Assembly: GCF_964355755.1 (NCBI RefSeq)
Contig: NC_092679.1
Span: 15,421,432-15,485,431 of the forward strand
DNA from: Antedon mediterranea
Lineage: Eukaryota; Animalia; Echinodermata
Direction of reading: 5' to 3'
DNA length: 64,000 nucleotides
Shown: in pieces, positions 1,807-28,500 of the stretch
How positions within the stretch are numbered: position 1 is the stretch's first letter
Layout: each line of letters opens with the position of its first letter
The notes under the pieces: model-generated
Told to the model about the DNA's origin: nothing
What the model saw: only the letters and a program-made list of their open reading frames with translations
The model's database searches: none
Translations under genes and position numbers: made by a program

Positions 1807-3684
1807 TTTGCATGGGTGCCGACGCTAATTCTTGTTGGCGGTAGTCTGCTCTGTGTGTGGTAAAATGCATTTGCTATTATTACTTATCCCCCTAGATAGA
1901 AAGACCTCTAGGTAGGCCTAGATCTTTTTTGGTTGCCATGAATTGTAAGTCAAACCATGGGCCTGTAAGGGCTAGGCCCTAGTAAGATGCTACCTACTTA
2001 GGGCTCCCTGTTATTTATTTTCTTCAAAACTTATCTACTACTGTAGTTTAGACTAGGCCTAGGCTTAGTTAGGGTTACCGAGAGTTGACTCCATTGTTAT
2101 TGCCACGATTCAACTCCGCGTACGTTACCATGCGCGCTATGTCATTGACGCGATTATTTGTCCATTGGTAAACACATTTTTATGTAGTATTATTCTGAAA
2201 ATAATTGAACTGTAAACATAATTCTTTTGAGTATTTATTTATTTACATATCATTCCATAAGATCAACTATTTTTTATCTTCATTACATTCAACCAAACAT
2301 GTAAAAAATGTGGTTAAAATATCTTACTGTCTAGCGCGTACGACCATACGCGGTAGATTGTTTACTCAAAAACCTTCGAACGGTCCAGTGACCTAACCCT
2401 ATTCAACCTTGTTTTTGTAGTTGAGCCTCTCATGACCTGGGATTTGTTTGTCTTCCTACGCCAAGATAATATAGTTCTACATGCCATGTGCTTTTTTCTC
2501 TGAGAAATATTTATTATAAGTGCCAAAAAAACGGTTTTTTCTCGATATGAAGCCTTTATTATTCAAATCTTTTAGAGAAAAATCAGACATACCATAAAGA
2601 AGGTCTATTTATTTCATTTTTGAAATAAAATTGTGAAAATTACGTGAGGCTCAACTACAAAACCACCATTTTGTGATATGATGTCATCGTAATCCAATCA
2701 AAGCTGAGATTTCCCGCGATCGGCAGAGCAGCTCACGGTTGAATGATTTTGGATTCTGGCTATTTGATTGGTGGACGCGAATCACCCACAGCGGAATGTT
2801 TTCTCTCGCGTGTACTGCGAAGTCACATGGTCTGTCTGTACTGATCGTTACTACACAAATTTAGAGCAATGAATTTGTACGAATTCCGTTAAATAAACAA
2901 CTTTATATATTTTGTAAACATTTAATAATATATTTTATTGATATTTCCAATGTTGATATATAAAATAAATTACTATAAAACGTAATTATATGTAATTATT
3001 TTAGCGAAAAACGGTGTGGTTCATACAATTGTCGACTGAGGGCGCAATTTGTTTACAACGTTCGTGGCCAAAAACGATCATTTTCGGCGATGTTTTAGAC
3101 CCTATATTTCGAAAACTACAAGTCAGATTTTCGTAATTCTTTCTTTATTGGAATATTGAAACAAAATACTAACATATAATATTTAAATTGGTTTAAAAAT
3201 AACAATAAGATAAGATTCTCAAATAATTTGATTGCATTAAAGGAAGTGCTCAGGGATCAAAGAGTTGATACATACACTGTTTAATAAACAAAGATTATTC
3301 AATTTACTCTAATTTATGTTGTAATTCTTTATATAGTTTTTTTAATTGAAAAATTCATTCATATGTAATATTTTCTTAATTTAATTTAGATAAAATAGTT
3401 TGTTCTTAGTAGATATGTTTTAATGCTATATGTAATTCATTTTATTAATATTTTACATACATTACATTGGTCTACTATTAATTATTACTTGAGAAATTTT
3501 AACCCACAGATATTTTATTTTATTTAGATTTGATTTTCTTTTATTTACAGCCATTTACTACAACTGCACGGTGCACAGTGGCATTATACGGGTAAAATTT
3601 TCTTTTTTCACATACTTTACTTACATATATTTTTGCCTTTGATCAGTTTTTTTAGTTTTGCAGGTGTTCAATAGACAGTACAGT

Positions 3685-6600
3685 ATGTTCAGACCAACTT
3701 TTCGGCGCAGTGAAGAGGGTGCCTTAATTCTTGAAGATACATCTGCTGCTGTAGTATTTAACAGCTTGAGAAAACGACCAACTGGCAAGTGTCTAACTCC
3801 TGATGATGTACGGCAAGATGCCTTGAAGGAGGTGTGCAGGCTGGGTGGAAATACCAAAGATGAATGTGATGTGTTGGGCTGCTACAAGTTTCAGCATAGT
3901 AAATACAGTGGACAAACATTCAAGTGGATGGTCGAAAATGTACTGGAATATGCAGTATGTTTTGTTATTAAAATGGCTAATGAAATTCCAAGTACAAGTT
4001 CACTTAGTATTAACAAATTCAACTTTAAGAGGTACTTGGAGTCTTTCCCAGAAGGCAAAGAAGCCATAGCAATGAAAGAAATAAAACGCTGCAGGAAATG
4101 CCCAACTAGACAGACATCGTACATACCTGTTGGTATTAAGCTACAAAAGGTTGAGGATGTCACAGATGAAACACTTTCTGGTACTGATGTCTTTGATGCT
4201 TCTTTGCAACCATCAACCTCATATGCACCAGGTAAGACTTATTCCATATTTGTGTTTTTTGTGCATTTTCTAAATTAATAATTTTAGGTTTTGCATTTTT
4301 AGTGCCTGTGTATGTTGTAGGCTTGCTGGGTTTACGTTTTTTTTTATGCATTCATTTATACTCAATCATAAAATCGTGTTGTTTAAATACATTGCTTTAT
4401 AGCATACTGTAGATAGCGAATGAAAGTAGTTTACTGCTAAATATTCTTTAATTTTCCGTCTTACAGCTCAACCAAATACATCTTATGAACCTGTTAGTAC
4501 TATGCCATCCACTACAATAACTATCAAACAGAGTGAAGGTAGTTTATTTCATGTAATTTTAATTATTTTGTTTGATTTTTAAAACTAGAAAATGAAAATT
4601 ACATAATGTAGTTTCATTAATTATACAATTTTGTTTTGGTTTTTCTTGCAGATTGTCTCATACCAGATAAATGGAAGAAGAACTTGCCCGAGATTGATCA
4701 GCAGTGGATTTCAAAAACCTTATTCAAGAAATCGAAGAAGGGGACCGCAGAGTTGGATTCAACTAAACTCAAACAACTTTGTTATTATCCACCTCAACCG
4801 GATCCGCTCAACAAAAACATACCCATGGCCAACAGTTACTTCGGTCATCGTCTTCTTCTTTGGTTGCCCCGCAAGACTTGGCAGGTCAAGCTGGTCTGCC
4901 CTCGGCCAGAATGCAAGAGCTATCCACTAACATCAGGCGGCCTCCATGGAATCGTTCGTCCGGTCCTGGATTTAGACTGCCACTACTTTCTTGCAACAGA
5001 GCAACTGAGGTGCTCTAATTGCAAACAAAGACAAATTGGCTGGAGTGAAAACATTTTAAAGCAACTTGATTTAGCACATCGCCTTCAGTTTCCTGTTGTA
5101 CTTTCGTATCACTTGGCCTGCGACAACCGGGTCCTGCAGCTTCTAAAGTACCGCGGTCTCGGTAACAGTCCATCACAGCTTCGCCAACAAGTCTTAGAAC
5201 AACACACAAGGCGGTGGAATGAGAGAGTGGCTCTCTACTTAGAAAATTGCAAGAAGTTCTGTGGTTCTCGTGATGATTATGTCATTGCTGCTTCTAAATT
5301 TGATGAGGTGTCTAAAATGATTCCTGTTCCCTCTGTCCAATGGTTTCTTACCATCTACTGCAACGAAGTAATGGGAAGAATCGACGAACTCAAGGCTTCT
5401 ATCACATCGACGTTCGGAAGAGTGTTGAAGATTGACTCGACCAAAAGGGTAAATAATTTATAAACAATACTATTTCTGCAATTTACTTTTAATTATTTGA
5501 ATTTTTTTTTTTTTTGCAGATTGTGGGGAAGCTTTCTTCCTAATAAATTTGTTTGGTTTTTTTTGCAGATTGTAAGGAAGCTAGCCGGTCGTGCATGTGG
5601 AACAGGAGCATGGGCAACAAACGTCGGAAATGAGTACGGCCAGGTGCTCATTACAGTCCTGACTGCTGCAGAAGGATGTGGCTTAAACAACATGACAAAC
5701 GGCATCATTAACCGATATGCTTTGGCAGGCGTACCTCCTCCCGAGATTCTCTACGTCGACCGTGACTGCTGCGGTCATTCAAGCATAAGGAAGATGTTCA
5801 GCGCCTGGCCTGACATGAAAATTCGTCTGGACATCTGGCACTTCATGAGGAGAATTGCTGCAGCTTGTTCAACAGAATCACATCAGTTGTATCCGATATT
5901 TCTCAAACGTCTTTCCGCTTGCATTTTTGAGTGGAGCGCTGACGATGTTGAACTTCTGAAGCTCGCCAAGCGTGAACAGCTCATTGCAAGCAAGAAGCAT
6001 TCCAACCCAACAGACGACATCATATTGAAAAACATCAGCAAGAAGGAGTATGCTTTACATTGTCGCAGGACAACACGAGGGACTCGCGAGACTGCCAACC
6101 TAATCCGAGAGCTGCTGACTTCCCTCGATGGTGAAGAAGGCCGTGACACAATGGGCGTCCCACTCTTAGACTCTGAACAGACCTGGGATATCTGGAGCTC
6201 ACAAGAGCGACACATCGCCTGCATCCAGGATCCAGAAGGCATCCCGCTCTACACAAAAACCAGTGAGATGCTTAAGGGTGGAGTTACCTTGCCAGTATAT
6301 CGTTGCGCAAGAGGCTCCACTTCTTTGGAATCGTTTCATCTTCACCTTAACAGGTTTATTCCAGGTACAGTATTACTTTTTATTTGGTATCTACCAAATC
6401 TTCAAACCGATCTACAGATTTTTGTATTATTTCATTATTATGGATGTTTTATTTTTTTCTCAGGTGAGCGTGCTAGCGACTTACATTTCCAAGCTTACCT
6501 GATGGATGGACTTGTTCGATGGAATGCAAACCGTGCACTAGCCGCTACCCAGTCTGGAGGACCCATCTCCAGTACATATAGTGGACTGCATCAGCATGCT

Positions 6601-8283
6601 CTCAACATACTGGCAGAGCAAGTGATTGGCAAAAAAGTGTACAAAAGTTTTATCATTCCAAACAAGTACACTGGAGAACTCATCGGAGTGGAGTACCTGT
6701 ACAACCAGTCGAACAAAGTGCTCGAAACTCAATTTCCTGTCAAAACAGATACCATTTATGATGAAGACTTTGATGAAGAAATTTACACTTTTGATGTTGA
6801 TGAAGGGTATGATGACAAGACTCAACCAGACTACAAACCACCTAAGCGTTGTTTTAAACCTCGAAATGCTAAAGAACCCTCACCACCCCAGCTGGAGCCC
6901 TTGCCTTCATGTGACGATAATGATGATGATGGTCAAGGAAAAGCAGCCCTTTTTGACACAGTGAGTTAAATTTGTGTCATTAGGTTCTACCTCACAAATT
7001 TTGTTTCTGTTTTGAAATACAATGCACGAGTCTGATTATATATTTTGTTTTCATATTTTACAATTTAGGAACTTGAGGATTCCACTGGACCGGACAACAT
7101 TCCAGGCTACGCCAAAGTTGAAGCCATGGCAGACTACCTTATGCAGTTTAAGGAAGACAGTGGAGTGATAAGTCAAAGTCATGCTGAACATGTCGCAAAG
7201 TTGTGGAACAACCTGGATGCTTATGACAAAACCATTAAGCGCAAAGCACGGCATCAAGATTACCTGACGAAAGGCAGGTTCAAGAAAAGTAAAACTACTT
7301 CCGTAATACCTGGTGTCGAAAGCACTCGACGGTAAGGCAGTTTCCAGCGTTTTTTACTTTGTTGCATGATGTGTCTTAAATCTAAGTTGTTTCTTTGGTT
7401 TTTTTTTTAAAAGATGCTTCTTAGGTCAGAACACCGGGCCAGCTCAGTGGCCGGACTGCAATCGATATATGGAGTGCATTATTACAAAACTATGTGAAGC
7501 GTATCCATCTACCGTATCTATCGAAGGTAGACGTTTCCAGCGCTGGCCGCTCATTACCAAAGGCTACAAGAACATTCGTCGGAAAGTGCTATCGAATGGA
7601 CACCTTATGTTGTTTGCTAAGCTTCAGTTGATGGAGATAAATCGTACGACACTCATCCAGTGGTGAGTTTTTACTTGTTATTGATTGTTATTTTACGCTA
7701 CAGTAAATACATTAAAGTTTTTAAATACTGTGTTTGATTTATTTTCAACAGGTACAACAGAACGTCAAAGAAGCAAGAGCGGCAAGTGTTGGAATCTGGC
7801 ATCTCGGCAACAATACCCAAACTTGTCTCTGATAAAACCCTACTTGAACCTTTAACCAAGCCAGCGGTGCTAAACGTTCATACAAGCGCTCCATCTTTCA
7901 CATTTGTCCTACCAAAAAACACTTCCGGCCTAGCGACTCAAGGAAACAGACCGTCGATCCCAGTTCCTGGCGAGATAGCAAAACCACCACCATCAGTCCC
8001 TGAGGCTAGCAGTACTCGTATTCCTAGAACTACCCTCTTGTACAGAAAACGAGTGGCTAAAGACATATCGGAAGGGAAACCGATCAAAATATACAAACCA
8101 AGAACGTCTGCGATTGTGTGCTCAAAGTGTAAGCAACCAAGATTAAATAAGAACCACACTCAGTACTATGGAAATTGGTATTGTGCTGCAACATCTGATG
8201 TGACTTTTAAAGAATGGAAATCGGCTATGGTTGCCATCCGTCGCCTTCGTCAAGAGAGGAAAAAAAAGCAGCAAAAAGAATGA
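3685..8283 (+). CDS. Intact spliced DDE transposase-like protein (DUF6729-like N-terminal part, IS256/MULE-like DxxH core, C-terminal C2HC knuckle), ~1250 aa
   Basis: Exons 3685-4231, 4467-4538, 4652-5448, 5569-6364, 6464-6960, 7069-7331, 7414-7662 and 7752-8283 are all GT-AG, phase-consistent and stop-free (3753 nt). Motifs: LKIDST (D), LYVDRDCC (D), LDIWH (DxxH), RGSTSLESFH (E), CSKC...H...WYC. Confidence 0.85.
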
Positions 8284-9509
8284 TTCCAAATGATTGTTGT
8301 AGCCATGGATAGTTTTTATACTGTTTCGTATATCTTCAATTTTTTTTTGTTCTGTGATTTTATATTCACTTTTTACAAAATATTTGTATTTTATGCAATT
8401 TGGCCATTGGGCCACCATATCTAATGGTATTCTGAATGTAAGAAGAATAATAATAAAAAAAAGTTTTTAATGCTGCCAAATCCAAAGAGCAATGATTAAT
8501 GTTGTAAATTATTTTGTAATTTTTATAAATTACATTCAGTTTTAATTATTACATTATAATTTACATTATATCATTCATTGCACTTTGTATTTGAAGGTCC
8601 CAAGCCCTTACAAAAAAAGCAGAGGGGAAACTTTTGCAGTTGAGTGTACATTAAAGGGTGAATTCTATATTCTTGTCAAGACTATTTCCTTAGTAGTGTA
8701 AATTCTCAAATATTTTATATTTATTTCAAGAGCAATTCCACTACAATTCATTTTGATGTGAATCAAATAATTCATTCCACCAATTCTAATAATATATTTT
8801 GATAATAACTCATACTATAGAGGTTATTATCCAGTAACCTTCAGTTACTCCTCTTACAGTTACACATATCCTATGATACCATGTGGCCTAGAAAAAAAGC
8901 CCCAGACAAAGTTAACGGTAATTTTGTCTAAATTTTTGAATAAGGCTAACTTATCAAACTATTTGGAATATGGTTGGCCAATCAGAAGTCAGGGTGGGTT
9001 TTTTAAATAGTTACATAGTATTTAACATATATATACAATTTTGATTGACAATTGTTCACACCCTAAAAACACAACAAAAAACGTCTCGTCATATTAAAAG
9101 AACTAACAATTAATACAACATACATATTGTAGTCGAATTTACCGTGTTTTAAAAACAAAATTCATGTACTGTAGTACAAGGATTTTTCGAAAATTGGATA
9201 AAAAAATGTCGACTTTCTCAACTTTTAACAAAAAATTTAAGTCTTATTATTCTATTATTTAATATTTTTATTCATTTAATACATCGATCATGTGATAAAC
9301 CCCTAAAATTGACAGTTTTTAGTATGCCGGTATTCAAAACAACCTCCTAGATTCTTGGGTCCCATTGGCCAATTGTCTAGTTTCCTCATTATCTAATGAC
9401 TCAGTCCAATTCAGTTTTAATGACCCCACATGGCTCTGTCCATTTCTTGTCCATTTATTTTTGCGTTCTTTACCGTTTCGAGTGATAAGATTGAGCTGTA
9501 CCCTTAGCG

Positions 9510-9745
9510 CAGGGATTTTTTCAAAAAATTGCCAAATTTCGACCTTTTTATTTTTCGCTCAAAACTGTTTACTATAGCATAATTTACATGCGCAAAACCC
9601 ATTATTCGACTCTGCGCATGTTTATTATGCTATAGTAACCATTATGTCAAAAAATAAAAGGGTCGAAATTTCACCAATTTTCGAAAATTTCCCTGTACAG
9701 GGATTTTTTCCAAAAATGGCAAAATTTCGACCTTTTATATTATCT
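9510..9745. mobile_element. CAGGG-ended MITE (9510-9694) followed, across a TA, by the left end of a second copy
   Basis: cagggattttttcaaaaaattgccaaatttcgacc ... ggtcgaaatttcaccaattttcgaaaatttccctg, then TA, then cagggattttttccaaaaatggcaaaatttcgacc. A degenerate end also occurs at ~9177. Confidence 0.65.
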
Positions 9746-12124
9746 ATTCACTGTGTTGGTATGTACATATTCTGGATGTTCTATTCGAACTACTATGTTC
9801 GGATTGCTGTGGCGATGAAAAAAGTCATAGCCAATAATAGTAAGATTTGTTAGACGCGTATCCACCAAAGTTCTCAAGGCGCCTGTGAAAAACCAATGGA
9901 CACTCATCCGTAAACTTAAATCAGGCAAAAAACATAATTGCATTGTGTTTACCAGTTAAGGCGCATAGACTGGCTAGTACATATTTAGTATATTCTCAGT
10001 TTTCTGAGTACCTAGAGAACAAAAAACAAAATGATACATTGCCAACATAAATAACATAATTAATCAAAATTATATAAAATAACATAACATTACTGATCCA
10101 ACAATTTGATTACTTGTAAAACCATCGATCTCATAGTTTGAAAAACTTTGCATTTATTTGGTACCTAATACACATATTAAAATATTGACCTTTGACCTTA
10201 TGTCAACTGATGAAAATGATGAATGTGCTCTTTTACAGAGCGTATGATTATATTAACAGGATGACTCTCAATTGCGGAGGATATTTTTTCACAAGGAGAT
10301 TAAATAGATACCGATAATCATAAAAATGTAATAAAAGACCAAGTGGTGCTTCAATAAATTCGAAAAATGTCAACGATACAGTAATTTAAATTAGTAACGT
10401 CGAAAAATAAAAGGGTCAAAATATGGCTATTTTTTTAACAATTCAATTATGATTTATTTTTGTATATTCATTTGTTTTCTTGCTTCGCATGATTGCCACT
10501 TCAAGCGGTCTTCTGCCTTCATTTTTGGCAAATAAATTCCAAAATACGAAATTTATAATAATAAATGAAAAACTAATACTGGTAATATCTAGAAGTATGG
10601 TTTACGGAAGTTCTTATCAAGGTCATTCATTCAGCAAAATGATATTGTGCCTGCTTCTTCACAACAGTTTCGTTAGGAAAGTATTCACCGATGTGTGTCT
10701 ACGGTAAATTTTAAAGGTAAGGTTGCATGTTTCGTCATGGTGATGAAAGTGCTTTGATATTTATAATTGTAACTTATTTATGATGTTTGGCTACCACTCC
10801 AAGGGTCCTGGGTTTAAGTCCTGTCACATGTCAGGATTTTTTCTAAGGACAAAATTACAACTCCACTTTTAATAAGACTTTGTTTATGTAGAGAATCTTG
10901 TGTATATGTTTGGCTTGTGAACCTCTGAGCGTCCCTAATGATCAGCTATTGCTGGATGGATCACCTTCATTAAATATGTTCAAAAAAAGTTTACATTGCG
11001 CCTGTATTTCAGTACTGGTGGCCTGATGATAAAAACATCATAGCCTAAAATGGGTGTAGTATTTAAGAATACATTCCGTATAAAACGTATACGCTGGTGT
11101 TGATACGGACTTTACTCCGGCTACCAAAACCGAATTCTGGCAGCCTTATTTTGTTTAACCATAACCTCATGGAAAAAAATGCTTTCGGCCTCAATGCAAA
11201 CGTAGGCATATAATTTACTAGACCAATATTATGTTTAATTAAACCGTATAATGGGTAAAATCCAATTACCATTAGTTATACGGTAAATGTAAAATAAATG
11301 TTGAGGCACATGTAGGCATATTTCCCCGAATAATTATTTATTACTTAAAGATAACATAACAATTAAGATCATTTCATCATTTTTAAACCGCAAAGTGATG
11401 AAAAATTTAATATTCTGAGGAGCGGTACGAAAATGATAGGCTTAAGCCAATTATTGGGACACTCGGAACCCGTATTACTTCCGTGAGGAGCAAGCCCCTT
11501 CCGGAGAAGGTCATAACCCGCCTAAAATGTATAATTATAATGGAAATTCTATAATATCCTACTATAAAGAGTTTCCATTGGAATTATTGTCTAATTTTAA
11601 TGTATAGTAGAGAGTACTCTAGCTCTACTATCGCAAACGTTTCACCTCGTGAGATTAAATATCCTATCGTTTTGTTAAGGAATTCAACCAGTTAGGAAAT
11701 TGATACATGTACAGATATATAAGGGTACTAGTATATTTAAAATTGCTTCCAAACATACGTTGTATATTTACGAGGACGTTGTTAAATAGATTTGATTTCT
11801 ACACTTTATAAAATTATGTTGATGATGATTTCCACAACTTTTCATTCTTAACGGGTAAAAGTGTGTTTTTAGAAACAAAATGGGTCCATAATATTATTTC
11901 CACAAGACTGTTCGATCAAGGCTATATTTACGTCCTCGTCCAATCAACCTTCACGTCCTACCATGAATTATAACCTCCAAAGTATAATCATTATCATACT
12001 CACATAAATTAAAATGTAATAAATATTATCATTGATAGTGAAAGTGCATTGTGTAGAACTCGTAGCTTACATACAATGACACTGTCATACTAAACAGTGT
12101 AAGGTCTTCTTGTTTATAGGAACA

Positions 12125-15100
12125 ATGTCTGTATTTGGAAATGTTGTTCAAGTTAGATATGGCACTTATTATTACCAAGTATTTGTTCTCATATTATACG
12201 CTATATCGCCTGCGAACACCGATTCCGATTACAGTAAGTATAAATTGTCAAATACGTTGACCTAGGCCTAATTGTGTAGTAATTGCAATTACATAAAATA
12301 GTATTGTTTGATTTGTTCGTGGCCAGTGAAGGAAAGGAGCAGTTTTCTAACAAAAATTCCTTTATGGTTGCGGCACTGTAATTTGAATCTTCTAGAATTG
12401 AGAAGCAATGTACAATCGAGTTGAGTATGAAATTAATTATAGTCCAACGCGGAACTAATTTTCCTCTATAGAGAGATTTTCTAAAAGTACTGTACAGAAA
12501 ATAGATGTATGCATTTTCTTACTGCTATTTGGTACTGAATATAGTTTTACTCATTTTTTAATACTTTTTAATCCATCTGATACAGAAACTTAAGATTTCT
12601 TTTACAATCTATAACTTGTTGTGACGTCATCATTTGATCTATTATATAAAATTTTTTAATGCAGATGAAATTAATAATCATGACATTTTTTCTTTTATGC
12701 TTAAGGAATGGAACATATATACGGACAAGATATCCGTATCTGCCTACCAAGTTCATCTTGTGACAACCGATGCGGATCCATTTTGAATGGTGGAACCGCA
12801 AAATGCAGCTGCGATGCACAATGCTCAATGTTTAGAGACTGCTGCTACGATTTTACAGATAAATGCGAAAAAATTACCAGGACAGAAGTTCAAAAAGAGG
12901 ACATGTCCTTTAAAAAAAAGACAGAGTGTTTGAATACGGATTCAACCACAATAGATACGGGCTATCATGTTATTTCTAATTGCATAAACACAACAGAAGA
13001 AACAATCACTAGGAAATGTGAACATCCAGAACAACAGAAGATCATAGAGCAAATTCCAGTAACAGATCCTTATGGAAACGTTTATAGAAACTTTTATTGT
13101 GCATCGTGTCATGGCTTGCAGACTGCAGACTTAGTCGCATGGCGCATGTCTGTTTCTTGTGATGAAGGTGATGTTCACAAAGCATCCGATGACGACTCTA
13201 CAATAAGTATATCTAACGTTACGAAACACACGTTGCATGAGAAACTTCTTGGACAAGATGTATTCTGTCAATCATATAAATACACACCTCCAGTAGATAG
13301 AAAGCGACCACGTCCCTGCATGTTAGGAAAAGAAACCTGTCCATACGGCATCGTGGATGAACAGATTAAACTCGGTTGTTCTGCTTATTCCGCCACTGTG
13401 TATGTTGGTTCACAGCCTTATAAAAATCCACATTGTGTAATTTGCAATGGCTATTTAAATGAATACAGTTGTCAACAGGTACTGTTTAGAAAAGGGCCAC
13501 CTGGTCCAAAAGGTGAACCTGGTGAACCTGGTATCTTGGGTATTCCTGGTGAACCTGGTATAATGGGTCACGATGGATATCCTGGTTACACAGGTCAACC
13601 GGGTTTTATAGGACCACCTGGTCCAGAGGGTAGTCCTGGGCTGCCGGGTAAAGATGGTTCACCAGGATTACCAGGTCCACCAGGTTCACCAGGTCCACCA
13701 GGTCCAGATGGCGTTTCTGATTTAGAAAGTCAAGAAGGCCCTCCGGGTCCAGACGGTCCACCCGGTGTAAACGGCATCCGAGGCCCACCAGGTATACCAG
13801 GACTTCCAGGGCGTATGGGTTTGGTTGGAAACAATGGTGCTCCAGGATTAGATGGTGCAACTGGTTCAAAAGGTCCTCCAGGTGAAGAAGGTCGGTCTTG
13901 TTCATATCGGGGCCCTAGTCAAAGTAATCAATTTGAAGATCACCGAATTAGTCGCAGAGACATTCCTGAGACATGGAGTTTCTCTATTCAACCAGGCCAG
14001 CCTGGACAAAAGGGTTTTCCTGGTAGACCAGGGTATCCTGGCGCAAAAGGTGATGATGGTTTACCTGGTATACTTGGTGAACCTGGAAAACCTGGTCCAT
14101 CTGGGCCACCTGGTCTACCAGGCTTACCAGGTGCACAAGGCCAAACTGGTTTACCCGGTCCACCTGGTGAGCCTGGTATGCCAGGTGAGCCTGGTTTACC
14201 AGGTCTTACTGGTCCAATAGGTAAATCTGGTATACCTGGTGTAAAAGGGCAACCTGGTCCACAAGGTTTACCTGGTATACCTGGCTTCGATGGCTTCCCT
14301 GGTAAAAAAGGTATCAGAGGGTCAAAGGGTTTACGTGGTCCACCGGGTCGTCATGGTTCACCGGGACCAGATTGCCATTTTGATACACGCCTTGGTACAA
14401 AAGGGGACCGTGGTCCATTTGGTGAGCCTGGAATAAAAGGACACACTGGAGAAATGGGCTCCCTCGGTGCACCAGGTCTACCAGGTTTATCAGGTTCACC
14501 GGGTACACCAGGTTTACCGGGTCTACCAGGAAGACGTGGTCCACCTGGAAAACCAGGTTTACCCGGTAAACAGGGGCCAAAAGGTGCACCAGGTCCACCT
14601 GGTCGACCTGGGAACGGTAGGCCTGGTCCACCAGGTTTTCCTGGTGTACCTGGTTCAGATGGTGAAATTGGGTTACCAGGAAAGCCAGGCTCAAATGGTT
14701 TAGACGGTGAAACGGGTAGACCTGGCGTTCCCGGCCGTCTTGGGTTACCTGGTGAAGATGGTGACCCCGGGCAAGAAGGTCGTGTGCTTCCTTTTGTCCC
14801 CATTGGTCCTAATGGTTTATATCCAGATCTTGGTGGTTGCTCTGGTACATATTGTACAGGAACAGGAACGGGAACAGGACCTTCTTTCACGACGTTAGAT
14901 GTTCTCGTTAACTTTGAAAACGGTAAAATAAGCTTGAATTCTGAATATATTAAATATACTGAAAGTCCGATAATATGCAACACAAAGCAAGTGTACGATT
15001 TTATCAAGAAGGAATGTATAGACTTACAGTGCCGTGTTGGTTATACACTGTCTGCTGAAGCAACGTGTGTGCCTAGTCAGAATCCATTAAGGGATGATAC

Positions 15101-17341
15101 GCCTAACTTAGATATAAACAGACCTGCTTCACCTAAATGTAATAGCAAACCTCCAGGTATGCTATCTGAACTCTTCTGCTTGTGTCAAAGTAAGGAACAA
15201 ACTCTGAATGTAAATTATGTAACTGAAGATCCTAATTCTACCGAAGACAGCTTGATAGATCATTTGCTTGAAAGTACAGTAGGAACTGACATAATCGTTT
15301 TCGACCAGAATATATCGCCTAATCCATTCCTTAGCATGGATTTCATGACATCCGAATGTTTAGATATTGTTTATTTGTCGTCAGTTGTTACAAAATCGAT
15401 TTACGCTAAAAAAGGAATTTCTTTGGTAAACTTAGTACATAACTGCTTTGGAAACCAGTCCACAAACACTGAATGTGTCACTAACACAATGTCTGCAAAC
15501 AATTTGATAAATTTGAACGGTACAAGGACGATTCGAAACGACAAGAAATCAATACAGGTGCCACTTGATGGTTATACATTAGACCTGACCTTTGACATTC
15601 AAAATGATTCTAATGTATGCGTAAGTTTGACGCTGAACACATGTATTGATACTTCCGTTACGGGTTCTTGTCCATTGATTGAACTGGACTACAATTCATT
15701 TGTAATTCAAAGTAATAACACAACAATAATGCACCAGGCCACTGGAAAAGTATTCACTTCTGGAGAGTACAGTCTGACAGAAAATGACACTGTACTTGTT
15801 TGTTCGTTCTTCAATCAAAAAGCAGAACCGCTTACGACAGTTATATTTCTTTATTCTGACACACTACTAGTTGTGAATATGATTGGGGTTATTCTTTCTC
15901 TGATTGGTTTGTTCTTCACATTTACAATACGATGTGCAGTAAAAGAGCTGCGGACACATTCCGGAAGGATTGTAATGAACTTGTCTTTCGCACTTTTTAT
16001 CGCCCAGTTGTTTACTCTACTATTAGGTTATTTTCGTGGCAACGCGACAGCTTGTAGTGCGGCGGCGGCTTTTCTCCATTACATCTGGTTAGTAGCTTTT
16101 CTCTGGATGAACTCAATGGCAATCGATTTGTTTCGCATCTTAAATTCGATTCAGCTCACAGTTCGCGACACAGACCAGAACAGACTTATGTACAGAAGAT
16201 ACTTCCTGTACAGCTGGTGCATTCCAGCGGGTTTCGTCAGCATTCTTTCAGCCATCCAGTCTTCAGATTTCCCACGGTTTTACTTCAAGTATGGCGACGA
16301 ATCTGTTTGTTGGATTCGTGATGAATTTGCTAGTCTTATTGTGTTTGGGTTGCCGATCGCTTTGGTCATTATTGTCAATTTTGGTTTGTTCATCTGTATT
16401 ATATACAGGATTCGGAAAGTAAAACAGTCTACAGCCGAGATTCAGACGAACATATCAACAGGAAACAAGATATCAACGGAATTGAAAATATATATCAGGG
16501 TAAGCTTAAGTACATTCGGTAGAAATAAAATCATAATTGTATAAACAAATTGGTGACTCTGCATATGATACTACGTTATATCCAAAACAAATAAACAAAC
16601 AATGTAGTATATTTGCCACAATTGTTTTTACCGTACTGTATGGCTTTCTCAAATAATGTAAGATATTGGTGTTGGAATATTTCGCCTATTCAGTAGAATT
16701 CTTTGTTTCGACCTAATTTCACAAATGATCATTCCTTATTTGGTCTAAAATCTAACCTCTCACTTTTCCCTATATGCCTACATTATTACGCACTTCCGTA
16801 TCACAAACTTCTAATGTTGATTTACTAGTTAGTCATGGTTGTGGCATTGATCGAACGGCTACTTTGTAAGACATCTCAATGTTGACATCACTTCAGTTTC
16901 TAGAGAGAAAGAATTTGTCTCCAACTTTCCAGTAACCTCAAACAGTCTTTACAGCATTTTATTACAGCACATCTTTGCCATATTGCCGACAATGTTTTCT
17001 TTACTAAATCATAATGTTAGAAAATGAAGATTTCTTAGTTGCCCTAACTGTAAATGTGTTTTCTTGTCTTACAGATTTCCACCATAATGGGCTTAACTTG
17101 GACATTTGGATTCCTTGCCTCTTTCGTTGATCATATAGCAATCTGGTATATCTTCATTATACTCAACACGCTACAGGGACTGTGTATCACCATCGCATTC
17201 AACGCTAATCACAATATGTTGACGATACTTCGAAATCGTAAAGGTTTACACCAAAGTTCAACTGAAGAACATAAATTGAAATCTAGAAGTAGGTCCAATG
17301 AATCGAAACCTACAAAAGTGACAGACACTAACAACTTATAG
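12125..17341 (+). CDS. Family-B (secretin/adhesion/Methuselah-like) 7TM GPCR with somatomedin-B domain and a long collagen triple-helix ectodomain, ~1389 aa
   Basis: Exons 12125-12233 (hydrophobic signal-like peptide, phase 1), 12706-16499 and 17075-17341 are phase-consistent. SMB: CDNRCG...[17 protein letters not shown]. Repeated [11 protein letters not shown] / [11 protein letters not shown] motifs. Gly-X-Y at 13494-14783. 7tm_2 motifs: [40 protein letters not shown]. Confidence 0.9.
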
Positions 17342-17530
17342 GACCAAACTTTCTATCAATAAAAGTTTGAGAGAAGACAATATTGAAAGAAATTGACATT
17401 GAAAGTTATAAAACTATACTCGTGTGAACCGAGAGCTTACAAACTCGCTTGGGTTAATAGGTAATAAACCAGTAATAAACTTAACTTACGTCAAGCGAGT
17501 TTCGTCTAGCTAACAAACTTGACTTCGTCA

Positions 17531-17595
17531 GTTCATCTCTGACGAGAAGCTATAAGTTCATCTCTGACGAGAAGTTATAAGTTCATCTCTGACGA
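17531..17595. repeat. 25-bp tandem repeat (~2.6 copies)
   Basis: Unit gttcatctctgacgagaagYtataa at 17531, 17556 and 17581. Confidence 0.8.
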
Positions 17596-17699
17596 ATCTT
17601 CATTCTTGTAGATTAAGAATTCTAGGTTAAGTCTCTTCTTTATTACAGCTTAGCTGATTTATTTATTTACAATTGTTTGTGTTTGTACATAAATGTAAG

Positions 17700-17918
17700 A
17701 CTACTGATCGTGATATCGTGGGTTTGAATCCAATGCTCGTCGCATTCCTTGTATCCTTGGGCAAGACACTTTACTTAAGTTTGCCTCTATCTACCCATAT
17801 GTACAAATAGGTAGCTGTATTATGGGAGTATGTTTCCATACATGTTTGATAAAAAATGCCCGGGGTATGTACAGTGCTTAGGGGTTTCATTAGGTGCTTT
17901 ATAAATCCAGGATATTAT
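17700..17918 (+). mobile_element. Degenerate tRNA-derived SINE
   Basis: B-box-like gggtttgaatcc, SINE-core-like tccttgggcaagacactttac...tgcctctatctaccca and an L2-like tail ctttataaatccaggatattatt. Confidence 0.5.
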
Positions 17919-18584
17919 TTACCTCCGCCAAGGAGGTGTATGTAATCGGTGTGTAAGCGTGTATTTGTTTCTTTGTTAGCAGGATTACTCAAAAAGTAAT
18001 TACAACATTTACAAAAATTAATATACAGATAGATATGTGGTCAAGGACCATTCCATTAAATTTTGGGACCACTTAGGACCATGGTCCCAATTCTGGACCA
18101 CTTTTTAGTATACTTTTCAGACCTGCTAGTGTTACAAGATAGCACAGAATTTTCCAAAGCCGGCGAGCAGTCTTAAAGCAACAAGCAAACTGAAATTGCA
18201 TTTCTCGAGAACTACTTGTTCAAAAGACTTCATTTTTGTACAAGAGGCAAGAGTTATAATTTGTGATTTGTAATTTTAAAACATAATTTGATTTAATGTA
18301 CACCTTTGTTGATGCGAGTAGTTTAAAAACCCCATTTCTTTTCAAATTCACTCGTTTGATTTTCACGTTGCTGTTGTTCTATTGTTAGTCAACTGAAGCT
18401 ATTGTTAATTGAAAGGCTCGTTACATAACCATTACACCAAACTCGCATACACATGCTTGTAGTAAAATTAGCCTAAATCACAAACAGCATCAAGATTCAA
18501 GACACACAAATTTACCGGTGAAATCTTATGTAGGAGAATTTTACAGTAGGCAGAGGTATGCACTCTCGGAGTGGCTTTCTAGTT
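17919..18584 (+). mobile_element. Helentron/DINE-1-like non-autonomous element
   Basis: 5' acctccgccaaggagg hairpin/subTIR, GTTT microsatellite, and 3' ggcagaggt + hairpin cactctcggagtg + ctagtt. Same family as 52955-54720. Confidence 0.6.
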
Positions 18585-19580: not shown

Positions 19581-22500
19581 TTAGAAGCATCCTGAGAACT
19601 GGTTTGCAAGAAGCTTATCCAAATAACTAAACATAAAAATAAAATTGTATGTGAATACTGCAAAAATTCTCATTTTTCCGCTGACCACATAACAGGGAAT
19701 TTATTTTCCTATCCAATAAATCGGTAACAGTATATTTTTCTAGTTGAGGTCTGGCCCTACACACCAAAATTATCTGCTACATGCACAAGCGCAACTTGTA
19801 TTACATACATACGCAAGGTATATAGTAATACCGAATGTTTAGAATAGAAATCACTGATCATGGTCGTGTTTGTTCAATTGCTTGTGTCAAATTCATGCAT
19901 AAAGAAGTAGTGTTTGCTAATCCATAGTTAATCTGGCCTTCACTGCTTGCTTTAAGAACTCTAGATAAAAATGTGTATTCCGGCACTGTACAATTAAGTC
20001 CCGAATATGAATATACTGTAGATAAAAATGTGCATGCTGCGTACATAACAGTACAATTAAGTCGCGAATATACTGGATTTCTGTGCATGTATATTTCCCA
20101 AAACATTGTTAATTTCTTTGTTAGTACAGAATCGTAAATGTAGGAACAGCTTATCTTACCTGGCATTGTATTGTTCAACTCTCCCTTTCAAGATGTTTGG
20201 ACCAAGATATTTGCCTAATTCTACCAAACACAGACTGGCTGCACTGCTCGTCAAGGCACTGTCACAAGACTATACATAAAATAGATGAATACAAAACTAT
20301 AATGAATATTTATGACTTTGGTAGATAAAAACTTTTTTATGAATTTACATGTATTGCTAACTGTTTATTGAGCAATTTACTCAAAATTAGAAAACTAGAA
20401 TTGCTCTATTGCTCAAGTGTTTATCGGAGAAACTGAAACTTAAAACAAGTAAACATTTAATATTTTCTAGTTAAGTTTCACTTGTTCCGGTTTGCTGATT
20501 TATAATGGTCATTGAAAATAAGTTATGGGTTTTCCAAGTAATATTTTTAAAACATCATTCATCAACCTATTGTAATAAACCAACAAATATATCAAAGGTA
20601 ACCATGACCAATAAATTGTGTGATTTCAATGTATAATCAAAATAACTGATTACAGTATATCTTCTGGAATTCAAACATGATATAGATATGAATGCAATAA
20701 AACCAGTCAAAGTTCATTCAAAGTGGTAATATAAGTTAGTGTTTCTGAGTGTTTATAAACCAGTCCAGAAAGACTACCCAAAGTGGTAATAAGTGGTTGC
20801 AGTGTGTTTATAAACCAATGCAGTAAGTACCTGCTCTTCTTGTATAGTAAATCTGATTCTTTTTTTCTGTTTATTTCAATGTATTTGCTTCAACACTGTC
20901 ATATAAAAACTACTGTACCCGCCTACTTTGTTTAGGAAAATTGTATTGACGGCTGCTGAGTCACAGAGTTGAAAAGATTACACAAACTTTACCCGGTTAT
21001 AGCTCAGATCATGTCTAATAAACAGCTCTTGAGTCATAACATGGTGAAATGTATTTGTAGTATAGCATTTATCTGGTTCCAACAAATACTAAGTGGGGAT
21101 TTTAACTTTTATGTTGAACCTATTAAACTGTAGTTATTATTATACTTATTTTTAACATGACAACTTCTTTAAATAATTTTAATAACCATCCAGTCTCTTA
21201 TTTTCGTTTTCACAATTCTACTCTAAAAAATAAAAAAAGCTGTATACTATCATATTTGAGTAAGGTTTAATTAATATAGCTTTGTGTTTGTTGATTCCAG
21301 TATTGGTAAATATGTTTTGGCAAATTGATATAGAAAAGCAAACTAAATATTTGGACTGTTTGTACATTAATGTGCAGATTTTGAATTTCACTTTTAATAC
21401 GGGCTGGAAAGAGAGCAACATTTCACAGTCAAAATGTACACACCCGTACCCTCTATCGTAAAAACCCTATTGCAATGTTTTATACACAACAAATTATTAT
21501 TTTATAATAAAAGATATGAAAATAAATAAGAAATATTTTTCATTTATAGATGTCTTCTAACCAGGAAATACAGATGTGTTCTACTCATAATCTAGAATTA
21601 GAGTTCTTCTGTTCAACTTGCAAGAAAGCTGCTTGCACAGAATGTGAACATTTTCTGGATTGTCAGCAAAAACATGAAATGATTAAAATGAAGTCTGCTA
21701 TTGATAATTTTAATCAAGAAACAACTGAAGTACTCAAGATAGCCGAGGACGTTAAAAAGGATTTGGAGGAAACCTTTTATTCTATTAGTGAGAATTTATC
21801 TCACTTTAAAGATCAGGTAGATTTATGCAGAAAAGCTATTGAGGTTCAGGAGAAGAAACTTATCCAAGCAGTTCAAGCAAAAATTAAAGGATTGATTTTG
21901 GAACTTGAAGAAAAGCAAAAAACAATTGATGAAGATATTTCTGGTCAATTTGTAGATCTTGATGCAAGGAGAGATCAAGTTAATGATGAAATTAAATCGG
22001 TAAATTTAATACTAGACCAACCAGAAAAATCTAACACTCTTTCAAACTATAAGAAAAGTATCCTTAATGTTAAAGATAAGGTTTGTGGTATCCGTAAGGT
22101 ATTTCATGGAAAAAGTGTCACACCAATTTTTATTCCATCTACTAATGTAAATGGTTTGATTAACCAAACTGACATCGGTGAAGTGCTAATGGTTAATACC
22201 AATTATACAATTGCAGAATCAGATAGACAATTTACTGTTGCAACAGGACAAACTTTTAAAGTCAAAGTATCAAGTCTTGAAGAGGGTGAATTAACTGCCG
22301 TTTTTACTTCTGACTTCTGTCAAGAATCTGCCATTAAAATCAAACACCAAGGAAGTGGAGAACACATAATACCCGGTAGATGTGATAAGGAAGGTAATTT
22401 TCAGCTTAAGATAAGTGCTGAAGACGTAGAGATCAAAGGATCACCAGTAAATATCAAGGTGGAACCGCTTGGACTTGTGCATATTATTGATAACATTGAA

Positions 22501-25500
22501 CAGTATAAAGACCATCAAAATAACTATCGTGTTATGGATGTTGAAGTAGACATGGATGGTTGTATATTAGTATCAAGTGGTAGCAGAGAGGTTCTAAAAT
22601 TTGATCAATCAGGTTTATTTAAAACTAAAACAGAAATGACACAAAATGTACAAACCCTGCATCAAATGAGTGATGGTAGAATAGTAATCAGTAACACAAA
22701 CTGTGTTGTATTATGTAATGATAAGTTTCAAGAAATTCATAAATTTGGTGAAGGAACATTAACATATCCATTTGGTTTGACAGTTAACAAGGAAAATGAA
22801 GTCTTGTATGTATCTGATTGTGGAGCTAATTGTGTTTATAAATTTAATATTAACAATGGTGATCTAGTAGGAAAAATTGGATCAGACATATTGAAAGGAC
22901 CAGAACATATATCTTTGACCAAAGATGGACATCTGATTGTTTGTGATGCCCAAAATAGCAGAGTACTAATTTTTGATGATAACGACAAAATAGTAAGAGA
23001 AATAAAAGGAATACCATGGATTCAATACCCTTGTGGTGTGGCAGTTGATAAAGAGGAAAACATTTTAATTGTAGATCATATAGGTATACACTTGTTTGAT
23101 AAAAAAGGTCATTGTAAAAAGAAAATTTATTGCAGAGAATTCAGCAAGAAACTTATTTTTGCAAGCATCTGTGTAATCTCGAACAGACCTCGAAAGATAG
23201 CCGTGGCCAATTTCGGCACAAACGATGTTAAAATATTTAACTATTAAATTAAGTACTTTATTCAATAATTCTTTGGATTTCATAGATAACTGCTCCTCAC
23301 CCTTTGCATTTTCATTGCACATTTGCCCTAACAAAACCAACGAAGGTTGCAACTCTCTAACTTATAATACAATAAATTTATCAATGGGAGCTATCGTGTA
23401 TTTTCTTTCTCCTAAACTTAACTTTCTTTCAAACCAAAACAAAATGTGTATTATTTATTGGATTATGTACTCTATAGACCCACAGCAGCTAATGTGCAGT
23501 GGCAGTTAATGTGCAGTGGCAGCTAATGTGCAGTGGCAGCTAATGTGCAGTGGCAGCTAATGTGCAGTGGCAGCTAATGTGCAGTGGCAGCTAATGTGCA
23601 GTGGCAGCTAATGTGCAGTGGCAGCTAATGTGCAGTGGCAGCTAATGTGCAGTGGCAGCTAATGTGCAGTGGCAGCTAATGTGCAGTGGCAGCTAATGTG
23701 CAGTGGCAGCTAATGTGCAGTGGCAGCTAATGTGCAGTGGCAGCTAATGTGCAGTGGCAGCTAATGTGCAGTGGCAGCTAATGTGCAGTGGCAGCTAATG
23801 TGCAGTGGCAGCTAATGTGCAGTGGCAGCTAATGTGCAGTGGCAGCTAATGTGCAGTGGCAGCTAATGTGCAGTGGCAGCTAATGTGCAGTATACCAATC
23901 TACTCTTTTTGAATATTATATTGTAATTTATACATCCTCTGCATTTTTATTTTATGTTATGTTTGTATTTTTCACATGATGAACAAAACAAAAGTAAGTA
24001 AACAATTTTCATAACTAGGCCAGCAGCCATCTTAGTTTAAAAGAGAGAGAGAAAGATTTATTCAAACTCTTAGCAAAAGAACTTCCTACTTGTTATATAG
24101 GAAGACATGTATGCAAGTAATATATTGATGGTCAATTTTTTTTTCTGCTTTTTTCAGTGTAGAATTACACAAATTTAAAGTGTGGTTTGAAAATCAAGAA
24201 CAATTATTTTGATTTTTTAGATGGCTTCTATCAAAGGGCTACAGAATATATGTTCTACTCATAATCTAGAGTGCGACTTCTTTTGTTCAACTTGCAAGAA
24301 AGCTGCTTGCACAGACTGTGAACATTTTCTGGATTGTCACCAAAAACATGAAATGATTAAAATGAAGTCTGCTATTTGTGATTTTAATGAAGAGGCAACT
24401 GAAGTACTCAAAATAGCTGAAGAAGATAAAAAGGATATGGAAGAAACATTTTATTTGATTAGTGAACATTCCTCTTACATTAAAGATCGGACGGAGTTAT
24501 GCAGAAAAGCTATTGAAACTATTCAAGTAGTTCAATCAAAAATCAAGGAATTAATTATAGAACTTTAAGAAATGCAAAAAACTAAAGATCTTGATGGCAA
24601 GAGAGATTATGTGGATAATAAAATTAAATCGGTCAATTTGCTACTAGACAATCCAGAAGAATCTAACACTCTTTCAAACTATAAGACAGGTATCCTTGAT
24701 GTTAAAGATAAGGTTTGTGGTATTCATCAAATATTTCATGGAAGGAGTGTTGTACCTAATTTTATTCCATCTATACATATACATGATTTGATAAACCAAG
24801 ATGGCATCGGTGATGTGCTAATTGTTAATACCAATACACAATTGCAGAATCAGACAAAAAATTTACCATTGCAATGGGACAAAGATTTAAAGTTAACGTA
24901 TCAAGTCTCAAAGAGGGCGAGTTTACCGCTATTCTGACATCTAAATCTGATCAAGAATCCACTATGGTAAAACATGGGGAAAGTGGAGATCACATAATAA
25001 CAGGTATATGTGATATTGAAGGCGATTGGCAGATGAAGATAATGGCTGGAGATTATCAGGTTAAAGGATCTCCAGTGAATATTAAGGTGGAACCTTTTGG
25101 ACTTGTGTATACCATTGATAACATTGGACAGTATAAAGAGCATCAATATAAGTTTAATATCATGGATGTTGCAGTAGACATGGATGGATGTATATTAGTA
25201 TCAAGTGAGAGCAAAGAGATATTGAAGTTTGACCAATTAGGATCATTTCAAGGCAAAAAAGAGATGACTCAAAATATACGAACAATGCATCAAATGAGTG
25301 ATGGTAGAATGGTATTTAGTACTTCCACAAATTGTGTCATATTATGTGATAATGAGTTTCGAGAAAGTCTCAAATTTGGTGAAGGAATGTTTAAATATTC
25401 ATTTGGCTTGACAGTTAACAAGAAAAATGAAGTCTTGTATGTATCTGATTGTAATGCTCACTGTGTTTATAAATTTGATATTAATAATGGTGATCTGTTA

Positions 25501-28500
25501 GGGAAGATTGGTTCAAAAGAAATTAAAATGAGAGAACCATGTCATATAACTTTGAATCTCATTGTTTGTGACAGGTTAAACAGCAGAGTACTAATTTTTG
25601 ATAAAAATGAAACAACAACAAGAAAAATCAAAGCACTATCATCAATAACTTATCTTCATGGTGTGGTAATGGATAAAGAGGAAAACATTTTAACCTCTGG
25701 AGAATTTGGAGTAAATTTGTATGATAAAAATGGTTGCTTTAAAAAAGAAATTTTCAGAAGAAAAAAAACCTGGAAAATTGCTTATCCTAGCATATGTGTA
25801 ATCTCAAACAGACCACGAAAGATAGCCGTGACTGATAGCAAATCAAAAGATGTTAAAATATTTAACTATTAAATAACTTTAGGAACTAATTTCCTGGATT
25901 TAAAATAGATACACCAAACTCTTTCCTATTCTCTATTTTGAAAATTATGGACATAGAGGAGCCACAAGTGAACAGAACACCCTTGAACATCCTATATTCT
26001 AACATTCCAAATATTTTGGAGCAAATTATTAGATAAATTAAACAACTTTTAATAAAAGATATTAGAAATAAATATATTTTTTCTTGTATTTTACAGATTA
26101 TTATAAAATTTTAATATTAAAGACATTTAATTTCATTTGCTTTTGGTAATTATTTTCTTGATCAGTTCCATCATACGATGTAAAAATCATTTTCATTTTA
26201 GTCATGTGGTCAATACTTCAGCATGTACTGTACAATATGATTTTGTTGTTGATTTTTTAAAACTTTAAATATTTAGTGCATTGCATTTTATTGTTTACAT
26301 TTTACTAATTATAAAGATAAATTAGTAATCTTCTACGATTGAAACAGGGTTTTAAGTCATTTTTAAATGGCTATACAATTACTTCGAAACAAGACAAAAA
26401 AATTTTAAAAAGTAATCTACTTTTCAAACACCTACAACTATTGTATGTAATTTAACCAATAGCTGATGAGTCACAAAGGAGAACAAATAAGATATATTGG
26501 TTGTAACCCAAGAAGGATATCATTAGGTGATCCGAACACCTGTTGTAATTCTTCTTTCTTTCTAAGGGCGCGTTTATACAACACGCTATTACACGCATAT
26601 TCTACACGCCTACGAGGAGTGTGTTGTATAACAACAAAGAGATTCCGTGTAATGAGATTTTAATTGCAAAAAAGGCTACTTGGCTGAATCCTAAAATTTG
26701 GTGGATTCCCGGTCGCCGTTACCGTGTTGGAAGTGTCCTCAGGGTATATTTTGACCTCTCGTTAAAACAGGTCGTAATATCAATCATGTCATGCGACGTC
26801 TAACAAGATTGGGCCCATTTATTGCTGCTTCGCTGCCAGCAATCATCCTCCTACCACGTCTTACGCCTAGCCTGGTAGGGCCAACTCGTAGTGGTAGTAG
26901 GCCTCTATAGACTATCGTTTCCCACTCCAAACAGAATAAAAAATAACATCGCAAAAATGGCATCTTCTTCCATAGTGTATAGATGAAACAATGAAACCCT
27001 TAAAATAACTTTTATTAATTTAAATGAACCGAGAACAAAATAAACAACAATGCAAACGTGAACGAATACAATAATGAAAACGGTAAAAACCGCGCGAATA
27101 CATCGGACAGCGAGGAGGCGACGATGATTTGTTGACAACAACCCAGCCAACAATTCAATTCAAGCGATCAACGATTTGACCTTTTATCCTAGCATGCACT
27201 GCGTGTTGATGAAACTTCCGGTACAACACGGTATCGTGATTTCTAGTATAACAGCAAACGTTAAGGTGGGTTGACCTCGGTCCGAACAACACGCTAAAAA
27301 TTAAAGCCGTGTTCAAATTTAGGGTGTTGTATAAACACGACCTAATCCTTTTGTTGGTTGTCATTCTCGGAATAAGCAGTAATCTTGTTTTGGCCAGCAA
27401 ATAGATATAATAATTTTACACAATCTGAATTTGTGCAACTGTAATATTTTATGATCATATATCATATTAGCTCGTACGCAGCTAGAAAGACCGTTTTTGC
27501 ACATGATTTTGGTTCTTGATACCTTTTATAATAAATTCTTTTCATTTTTGATGAATTATGAATATAAAATAGTGACACACGTGCACATCAAACTTTAAAA
27601 ATCGTGCACTAGAGCTTGACAATGGGTAATTTTATACAAAATTTGTGTAAAAATATGCCTATTTTGAATCGATTATAGCTCTCGGGGATTGATGGTTACC
27701 AATGAGTTGTATGAGTTCATGTGAAATTTAGGTTATGCTGTCATCATATGGAAATCTGAATTTTAAAAATTGGATTTTGATACAGTTCATTACAATGTTT
27801 TCAATTTTCTTTCTAATTTTCAATATGTTAGTCAAACAATTCTCCTTCAGACATATGAACTTTTTTTTTTAATTTGAAAAATTCATCATATTCAAACAAT
27901 TTAATAAACGCGAGTGGTGTAACATAAAACCCTAATAAATATCATGTGCATGTTACGATGCATTGCACAATAGCCTAATTGAATTTCGATGCATTCATGC
28001 ATTTTTCTTTTCTAAAGTTTTCTCTAGGTACCAACTTCAGAATTTAAATTACATATTGTTGTTCAGATCACACATCACCAAACTATTGTAAAAGCATCAA
28101 TGGGAACCTGTCGCCAATGACGCAAATATTGTGTAGTTCCAATGTATTGAAATAACTCATTAAAGTGTATTTTCAGCAATTCAAACAATAACAATAGAGT
28201 GTTAAGAGAGAGGTATGCTTAATAAAAAGCAGTCAAGAAAAGGTAGTCAAAGTGATAAGGTTGCAAGCTTCTTGTTCTAACCTTAAAATCGTAAAAGTGG
28301 CACATTAACAGTAAGTAAATGCTTTTCTAGTGTAGACTAAATCTGATATTTCTTCTCTGGAAATAATAGCAAAGTTGTATGTACTGGGTGTAATTTTCAA
28401 CGAAGCTGAAATAGTTTACAAATCTGAAGGTGTGGCTTTATCCAAATGCTACTTTTCACTTTGTAGAAGTGATTCACAGGCTGGGAATTTTATAGATGAA

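Follow-up and report, generated by a model that had tools for sequence, protein, structure and literature searches.

The closest described systems to the gene analyzed here are the invertebrate receptors that join a somatomedin B (SMB) domain to the seven-transmembrane (7TM) bundle of class B G-protein-coupled receptors (GPCRs; Pfam 7tm_2). An expansion of SMB/Kringle receptors was reported in amphioxus (PMC2246102, the accessible part of which does not use the word collagen), SMB-bearing Mth/Mthl homologs are covered in PMC4768249, and de Mendoza et al. 2014 (PMC3971589), whose main text lacks the word "collagen", list a Collagen//Somatomedin_B//7tm_2 architecture in a supplementary figure. 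The gene lies in a 64,000-nucleotide stretch of the crinoid Antedon mediterranea (NC_092679.1, positions 15,421,432 to 15,485,431 of the forward strand; hereafter the window). It is intact and unusual, with a reading frame for a 7TM receptor that bears collagen of its own, 128 Gly-X-Y triplets in five blocks.

The predicted protein shares the SMB domain, two Cys-rich modules, a hydrophobic strand and the 7tm_2 bundle with the SMB, DUF8401 and 7tm_2 receptors, and is 45–69% identical by region to the A. mediterranea protein P0001. It differs from its nearest crinoid relatives in one linker, which spans 476 residues with 128 triplets and four cysteines, whereas theirs have 16–72 residues and 0–17 triplets. 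In P0002 (Anneissia japonica XP_033108333), which belongs to the same clade (100/100), collagen occupies the same slot and Pfam finds both Collagen and 7tm_2, but there are no linker cysteines, the model has neither SMB domain nor signal, and the tree does not single it out as the orthologue of the window gene. The PMC3971589 entry has the same three Pfam domains in one predicted receptor, in an order that puts collagen ahead of SMB. The adhesion GPCRs (ADGRL, ADGRD and ADGRG) give the best 7TM matches and have a long adhesive ectodomain, but the window protein lacks a GPS, and whereas adhesion GPCRs bind collagen as a ligand (PMC12716839), it contains collagen. Interrupted collagen blocks, a membrane anchor and possible convertase shedding are shared with the transmembrane types of collagen (XIII, XVII, XXIII, XXV), ectodysplasin A, colmedins and class A scavenger receptors. 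Those are type II single-pass proteins, however, and the helices of MACITs start from coiled coils and fold in the N-to-C direction (PMC7848082); the window protein, with its N-terminus predicted outside and a 7TM anchor, falls outside the MACIT type II topology. The streptococcal Scl1 and Scl2 proteins share the order of signal, globular head, collagen stalk and C-terminal anchor (PMC10765305), which is an analogy only, these being bacterial proteins with an unrelated head and anchor and no signalling domain.

Structure of the gene and of the predicted receptor

The gene consists of three coding exons (12125–12233, 12706–16499 and 17075–17341; coordinates are positions in the window and all features lie on the + strand), which give a 1389-residue open frame encoding, in order, a signal-like peptide, an SMB domain, two Cys-rich modules, 128 Gly-X-Y triplets, further ectodomain and a class B 7TM bundle. 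Coding exon 1 (36 codons plus 1 nucleotide) begins with the ATG, encodes the signal-like hydrophobic peptide and ends at a phase-1 GT donor; because an AG acceptor lies just ahead of 12120, a further, non-coding exon upstream is suggested. Coding exon 2, a single exon of 3794 nucleotides between an AG before 12706 and a GT at 16500, covers everything from the SMB domain through intracellular loop 3 and lies in a stop-free frame (12705–16541) to which the residue numbers below refer. Coding exon 3, behind an AG acceptor, encodes transmembrane segments TM6 and TM7, the cytoplasmic tail and the stop, with AATAAA at 17358. The exon 2/3 junction agrees letter for letter with the RefSeq gene model XP_071962556.1 (P0124). 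The exon 1/2 junction and the signal peptide are predictions, based on splice signals, on phase and on P0001, which begins in a similar way. The single open spliced frame that an earlier, sequence-only reading of this DNA had proposed is borne out by exon structure, splice signals and Pfam, as is its architecture of signal-like peptide, SMB domain, Cys-rich repeats and complete family B 7TM.

The SMB domain (residues 18–56; 12756–12872) matches PF01033 (E 2.8e-7) and is followed by the two modules, each defined by a YxNxxCxxC motif (12918–13472; AlphaFold pLDDT mostly 80–90 over residues 80–160 and 190–260). PF28443 (DUF8401) is precomputed for the relatives P0001–P0004; our local Pfam scan did not match it in the window protein, nor in those relatives annotated with it. 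After the collagen, a spacer with a Cys-x4-Cys pair (14838 and 14853) and a Thr-Gly repeat (14787–14882) leads into a conserved membrane-proximal ectodomain (14883–15854), consisting of a hydrophobic TTLDVLVNF strand, a Cys-rich knot, a β-α-β-β-α-β domain and a juxtamembrane β domain. The β-α-β-β-α-β domain is predicted at 15198–15446 (residues 832–914), with an order of strands and helices that we take to be that of SEA or ferredoxin-like folds; the GSVVV cleavage motif was not seen in it. AlphaFold folds most of residues 10–260 and 725–1040 confidently, and since the halves before and after the collagen hold 22 and 14 cysteines, both even, they are compatible with being self-contained, which is not proof. 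Fold-search match lists were dominated by the 7TM region.

TM1–TM5 of the bundle (15861–16499) match 7tm_2 (PF00002) at E 3.2e-24 and 86 bits against a gathering cut-off of 20.6, exon 3 alone weakly matches the end of the profile (212–250, E 0.062), and the cysteines of the disulfide between TM3 and extracellular loop 2, C1117 and C1202 (CWI), are present and nearly invariant across 40 rows. Thus, by sequence, the window protein is a class B (7tm_2) GPCR. Its fold is closest to adhesion GPCRs: the best match among profiles of Protein Data Bank structures is ADGRL3 (E 7e-45), adhesion GPCR matches start at the 7TM, and a model of P0001 matches the ADGRL4 bundle (Z 28.6, root mean square deviation 2.4, 259 aligned). 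A GPS motif, CxCxH(L/M)T, is absent before TM1, as is any Pfam match to GPS or GAIN, which sets the protein apart from canonical adhesion GPCRs. Methuselah_N (PF06652), which is arthropod-specific (PMC4768249), gave no match at E ≤ 0.1 with the protein or E ≤ 1 with ectodomain pieces. The ESM Atlas neighbors of P0002 include Mth-like names (scores 0.80–0.82), which is a lead only, our trees having been built without Mth reference rows. Because of the SMB domain, the two YxNxxCxxC modules, the strand after the linker and 35 of 35 conserved Cys columns, we place the window protein in the known but uncharacterised SMB/DUF8401/7tm_2 family of invertebrate receptors.

The collagen matches Pfam Collagen (PF01391) in 7 stretches (E 4.9e-60, 199.6 bits). 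Its blocks hold 25 (13494–13718), 18 (13737–13898), 42 (13995–14372), 25 (14394–14618) and 18 triplets (14625–14786); the total and the first three counts of the sequence-only reading stand, while its last two, 24 and 19, are recut as 25 and 18 at one two-residue break. The longest uninterrupted run is 42 triplets. The interruptions measure 6, 32, 7 and 2 residues, so that the earlier description of a rigid stalk was overstated. A triple helix rises 0.286 nm per residue, and the calculated block lengths are 21, 15, 36, 21 and 15 nm, or about 110 nm in all. Pro stands at Y in 67 of the 128 triplets and at X in 24; in animal collagens Pro at Y is hydroxylated and its enrichment there is typical. 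Net charges of the blocks are −5, 0, +5, +6 and −4. Four cysteines lie in the linker, Cys399 (13899) and Cys557 (14373) directly after blocks 2 and 3, and Cys712/717, the Cys-x4-Cys pair, 18 residues after block 5, compared with none in 12 of 12 relatives checked. Inter-chain disulfides are common at the C-terminal ends of collagen segments, and the pair presumably resembles FACIT junction cysteines. The 32-residue break (13899–13994), which holds one of these cysteines, carries a minimal RxxR beside a dibasic pair (residues 414–419), a possible convertase cut. A motif scan found no RGD, GFOGER-like or DDR-type motif; two KGD are present. In the AlphaFold single-chain model (40-row alignment), residues 263–723 have pLDDT below 50, as expected because a single chain was modelled.

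In runs X2–X5 the whole gene lies on one unbranched short-read contig of 6.8 kb, with 0–1 differences; these runs derive from one sample that may be the assembly source. A second sample (X1) covers the gene in short pieces, among them a 166-nt collagen piece with 0 differences. Where a run spans the gene, read depth hardly varies along it, which gives no sign of a second, near-identical copy. Run X1 was considered as RNA and rejected: intron 2 and upstream DNA stand at similar depth, genomic repeats are very deep and no splice joint is present. A separate 855-nt contig of X3 matches the TM3–TM4 DNA (16074–16225) with roughly 80% identity, an indication that the genome contains a further member of the family.

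The linker slot in relatives and the origin of the collagen

The best matches to the window protein are crinoid, namely P0001 and P0002, with 53% identity in the best alignment; P0001 is probably a paralog encoded elsewhere on this contig, as its gene is not within the 64-kb window. Family members also come from sea stars, brittle stars and a hemichordate. Across 40 aligned rows, a hypervariable Pro/Gly linker follows the second YxNxxCxxC module and extends to the conserved hydrophobic strand; it was found by pattern in 33 of the 40, several long values being misfires of the pattern on divergent motifs. In the window protein the collagen occupies this slot. The linker has 16–22 residues and no triplets in P0127, P0003, P0004, P0263 and P0264 (18 residues in P0264), 61 residues and 3 triplets in P0001, 61 residues and 6 triplets in the sea star protein P0251 (Patiria miniata XP_038051339), and 72 residues and 17 triplets (8 + 9, low-complexity GPS/GPQ) in P0002, while P0165 and P0203 have 63–89 Pro/Gly-rich residues without long periodicity. 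The built-in collagen of the earlier reading is a real domain, but it is not a separate added module, since it is placed in a variable linker that holds 0–17 triplets in relatives. P0003 (Anneissia japonica XP_033104035) combines Kringle, SMB and 7tm_2, an architecture first reported in amphioxus.

A 10-row tree built without the linker columns unites the window protein, P0001, P0002, P0264 and P0182 in one clade (100/100) with unresolved inner order, and a 38-row tree, from which the two N-terminal fragments were left out, contains the same three-row clade. Because P0251 falls outside the crinoid clade, triplet runs probably arose more than once; we infer the order of events in linker growth from this graded set. 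P0251 also carries 4 Gly-X-Y triplets before its SMB domain, giving the N-terminal order Collagen-SMB-7tm_2 of the 2014 figure. No intron interrupts the collagen insert. The idea that a known collagen was captured was rejected, in that the four non-collagen breaks match no fetched protein meaningfully (best E 0.19) and the best pure-collagen matches are generic; capture from an unsampled crinoid collagen may still apply. Recent satellite expansion was likewise rejected, 109 of the 128 nine-base units being distinct and the tandem arrays short.

To gauge how widespread the combination is, we fetched 395 proteins, the top rows of match lists with 4220, 4, 30489 and 1362 entries plus cluster members. 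Among them 53 have the family 7TM and 342 a run of at least 6 triplets, and only P0002 and P0251 have both, each in short form. No long-collagen family member was present in the best 150 of a HMMER scan over 1.84 billion representatives; such a member would rank high there, and distant 7TM families with collagen may still occur. A word-based search with the C-terminal region gave only 4 matches and a further search missed the known fragments P0182 and P0264, so both are insensitive to non-identical relatives. Among the listed rows of 30 ESM Atlas matches for P0002 no collagen-bearing family member was seen, which is no proof of absence, and the collagen-containing part of P0002 gave no usable match there. 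A published description of a collagen-bearing GPCR was not found in literature lying mostly outside subscription journals, which took in PMC4302439, PMC7042368 and PMC6408891. The earlier reading knew of no characterised 7TM receptor with its own long collagen, but the combination was listed in 2014 and a short form exists in P0002. As to whether the architecture is already widespread and described, only the two short cases turned up among the fetched proteins, and the accessible figure of PMC3971589 lists the combination. Although the domain combination is already logged, what is new here is the length of the collagen, which public annotation has missed.

A proposed trimeric receptor and its alternatives

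We put slightly better than even chances on a full-length, collagen-trimerised receptor on a long stalk, derived from a linker that expanded to 128 triplets. Several observations weigh against it. The RefSeq model starts after the collagen at Met878, with an acceptor-like AG just upstream, and homology searches found no protein identical to the N-terminal half. A weak phase-1 donor at 13513 paired with an acceptor at 14860 makes a candidate in-frame skip, which would take out almost the whole collagen; at 14185 there is also a donor-like site that scores strongly (6.5). In relatives the slot is occupied by Pro/Gly sequence without periodicity, so that a triple helix is not required there; no orthologue with long collagen was found, and the 128-triplet form is known from one species. 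Imino content of the blocks is moderate (18–29%), and neither a coiled coil nor a known trimerisation domain was seen in the predicted structure.

The RefSeq start, the AG before it and the candidate skip would suit a product free of collagen, made from a start or splice site near Met878 or by the in-exon skip at 13513–14859, with the open 5' frame left as a recent relic. We regard this as unlikely. XP_071962556.1 is 476 residues long, an exact match to residues 878–1265 plus exon 3; it shares the last junction, omits 913 residues including SMB and all collagen, and bears no partial flag in its name. Met878 (15336–15338) follows an AG with a pyrimidine tract by one base, but that acceptor is unremarkable among eight acceptor-like sites in exon 2. 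Donors in the first collagen block score at best 2.8 on a rough matrix against 3.3 and 5.0 for the real donors, and the pyrimidine tracts of acceptors near the collagen end are weak, reaching 9 of 15 at best. Against a relic stand 877 codons without decay, an openness that is not due to chance, because its probability from base composition is about 1e-22 and, across the collagen, each of the five alternative frames has 6–29 stops. An untranslated insert would lose its Gly periodicity with mixed codons, whereas here all four Gly codons are used (GGT in 87 of 129). Of the 35 Cys columns that nine crinoid relatives conserve, the omitted half retains all 35, and judged by identity to P0001 (124/254, 49%, before the collagen; 143/316, 45%, in the ectodomain after it; 148/214 in the 7TM) it is conserved as much as the post-collagen ectodomain. 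The short product, moreover, would have no signal peptide and would miss more than half of the conserved ectodomain. We read the RefSeq start as probably that of an incomplete model; full-length translation is likely on these sequence features.

In the full-length, trimeric receptor that we favor, the Pro/Gly linker of an SMB/DUF8401 class B receptor would have expanded into 128 collagen triplets. Pro hydroxylation and then an interrupted triple helix would tie three receptor chains together, with inter-chain disulfides at Cys399, Cys557 and Cys712/717, the C-terminal pair together with membrane anchoring being the likely nucleation point. The earlier proposal of a trimer is reasonable, with some support from the Y-position Pro and the four linker cysteines. 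A homotrimer would hold three SMB/Cys-rich heads about 100–110 nm above the membrane on a kinked stalk, with three 7TM bundles clustered below. Its likeliest job, though at less than even odds, would be long-reach adhesion or tension sensing, in which the three heads would attach with avidity to matrix or to another cell and pull would travel along the stalk to the 7TM bundles, with no GAIN/Stachel mechanism involved.

The basic site in the 32-residue break could let the head and blocks 1–2 be shed, and with it comes a different outcome, in which the full chain is made and triple helices do form but there is no stable three-receptor stalk, because the chain is cut at this site and sheds a collagen-tailed head or pairs with other collagen chains or receptor paralogs. 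Furin-like enzymes shed transmembrane collagens (PMC7848082), the RxxR and dibasic pair sit between Cys399 and block 3, and the blocks differ in net charge. The RxKR/RxRR consensus is absent from the break, however, and 85 triplets would still join membrane-bound chains after such a cut; we hold this outcome to be quite improbable. Even more doubtful is a monomeric receptor in which the insert serves as a flexible, polyproline-like spacer, an extreme form of the family's Pro/Gly linker, with slippage of a 9-nt unit producing the Gly-X-Y pattern. Non-periodic Pro/Gly linkers in P0165, P0203 and P0201 (including brittle star and sea star) and short period-9/18 arrays in the collagen DNA (65–90% match), with the GGT bias, point that way, but the triplets have diverged, X and Y taking 16–17 residue types, yet Gly does not vary even in runs as long as 42 triplets, unlike in a drifting spacer. 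That the assembly joined a collagen gene to a receptor gene is scarcely credible: the spanning runs come from one sample and X1 covers the gene in short pieces, but the 6.8-kb contig is unbranched, receptor sequence collinear with paralogs lies on both sides of the collagen, and the X1 piece is identical.

Surroundings of the gene and implications

High-copy interspersed repeats flank the receptor gene at 9500–11125 and 17576–18000, with a summed contig depth hundreds to thousands of times that of the gene. Upstream, at 3643–8280, lies a run of long ORFs with GC above the flanks, possibly a mobile element, which includes a DUF6729 domain (4621–5460, E 1e-78) and, at 5464–6966, a frame of 501 codons that Pfam does not match. 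Downstream, at 21550–43846, is a tandem cluster of apparently intronless B-box/coiled-coil/filamin/NHL (TRIM-NHL-like) genes that are 52–68% identical; it holds long open frames at 21550–23244, 30262–31956 and 42254–43846, interrupted copies at 24221–25869 and 38698–40405, and fragments near 28966 and at 29669–30034.

As a possibility held at less than even confidence, collagen may have arisen afresh in a GPCR through linker growth (0, 3, 6, 17 and 128 triplets among living echinoderm relatives), giving a disulfide-locked homotrimer whose stalk of about 110 nm would be its own matrix fibre and would sense tension without GAIN/Stachel, possibly in crinoid collagenous tissue. The RefSeq model hides two thirds of this receptor. 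GPCRs are otherwise known as monomers or dimers; if our reading is true, folded collagen would force at least three chains together and provide a natural test of three 7TM units signalling together. Collagen on a 7TM anchor would also add a new topology, as all transmembrane collagens reviewed in PMC7848082 are type II single-pass proteins, and the graded series in a single linker slot would make this family a tractable case of collagen growing from low-complexity sequence.

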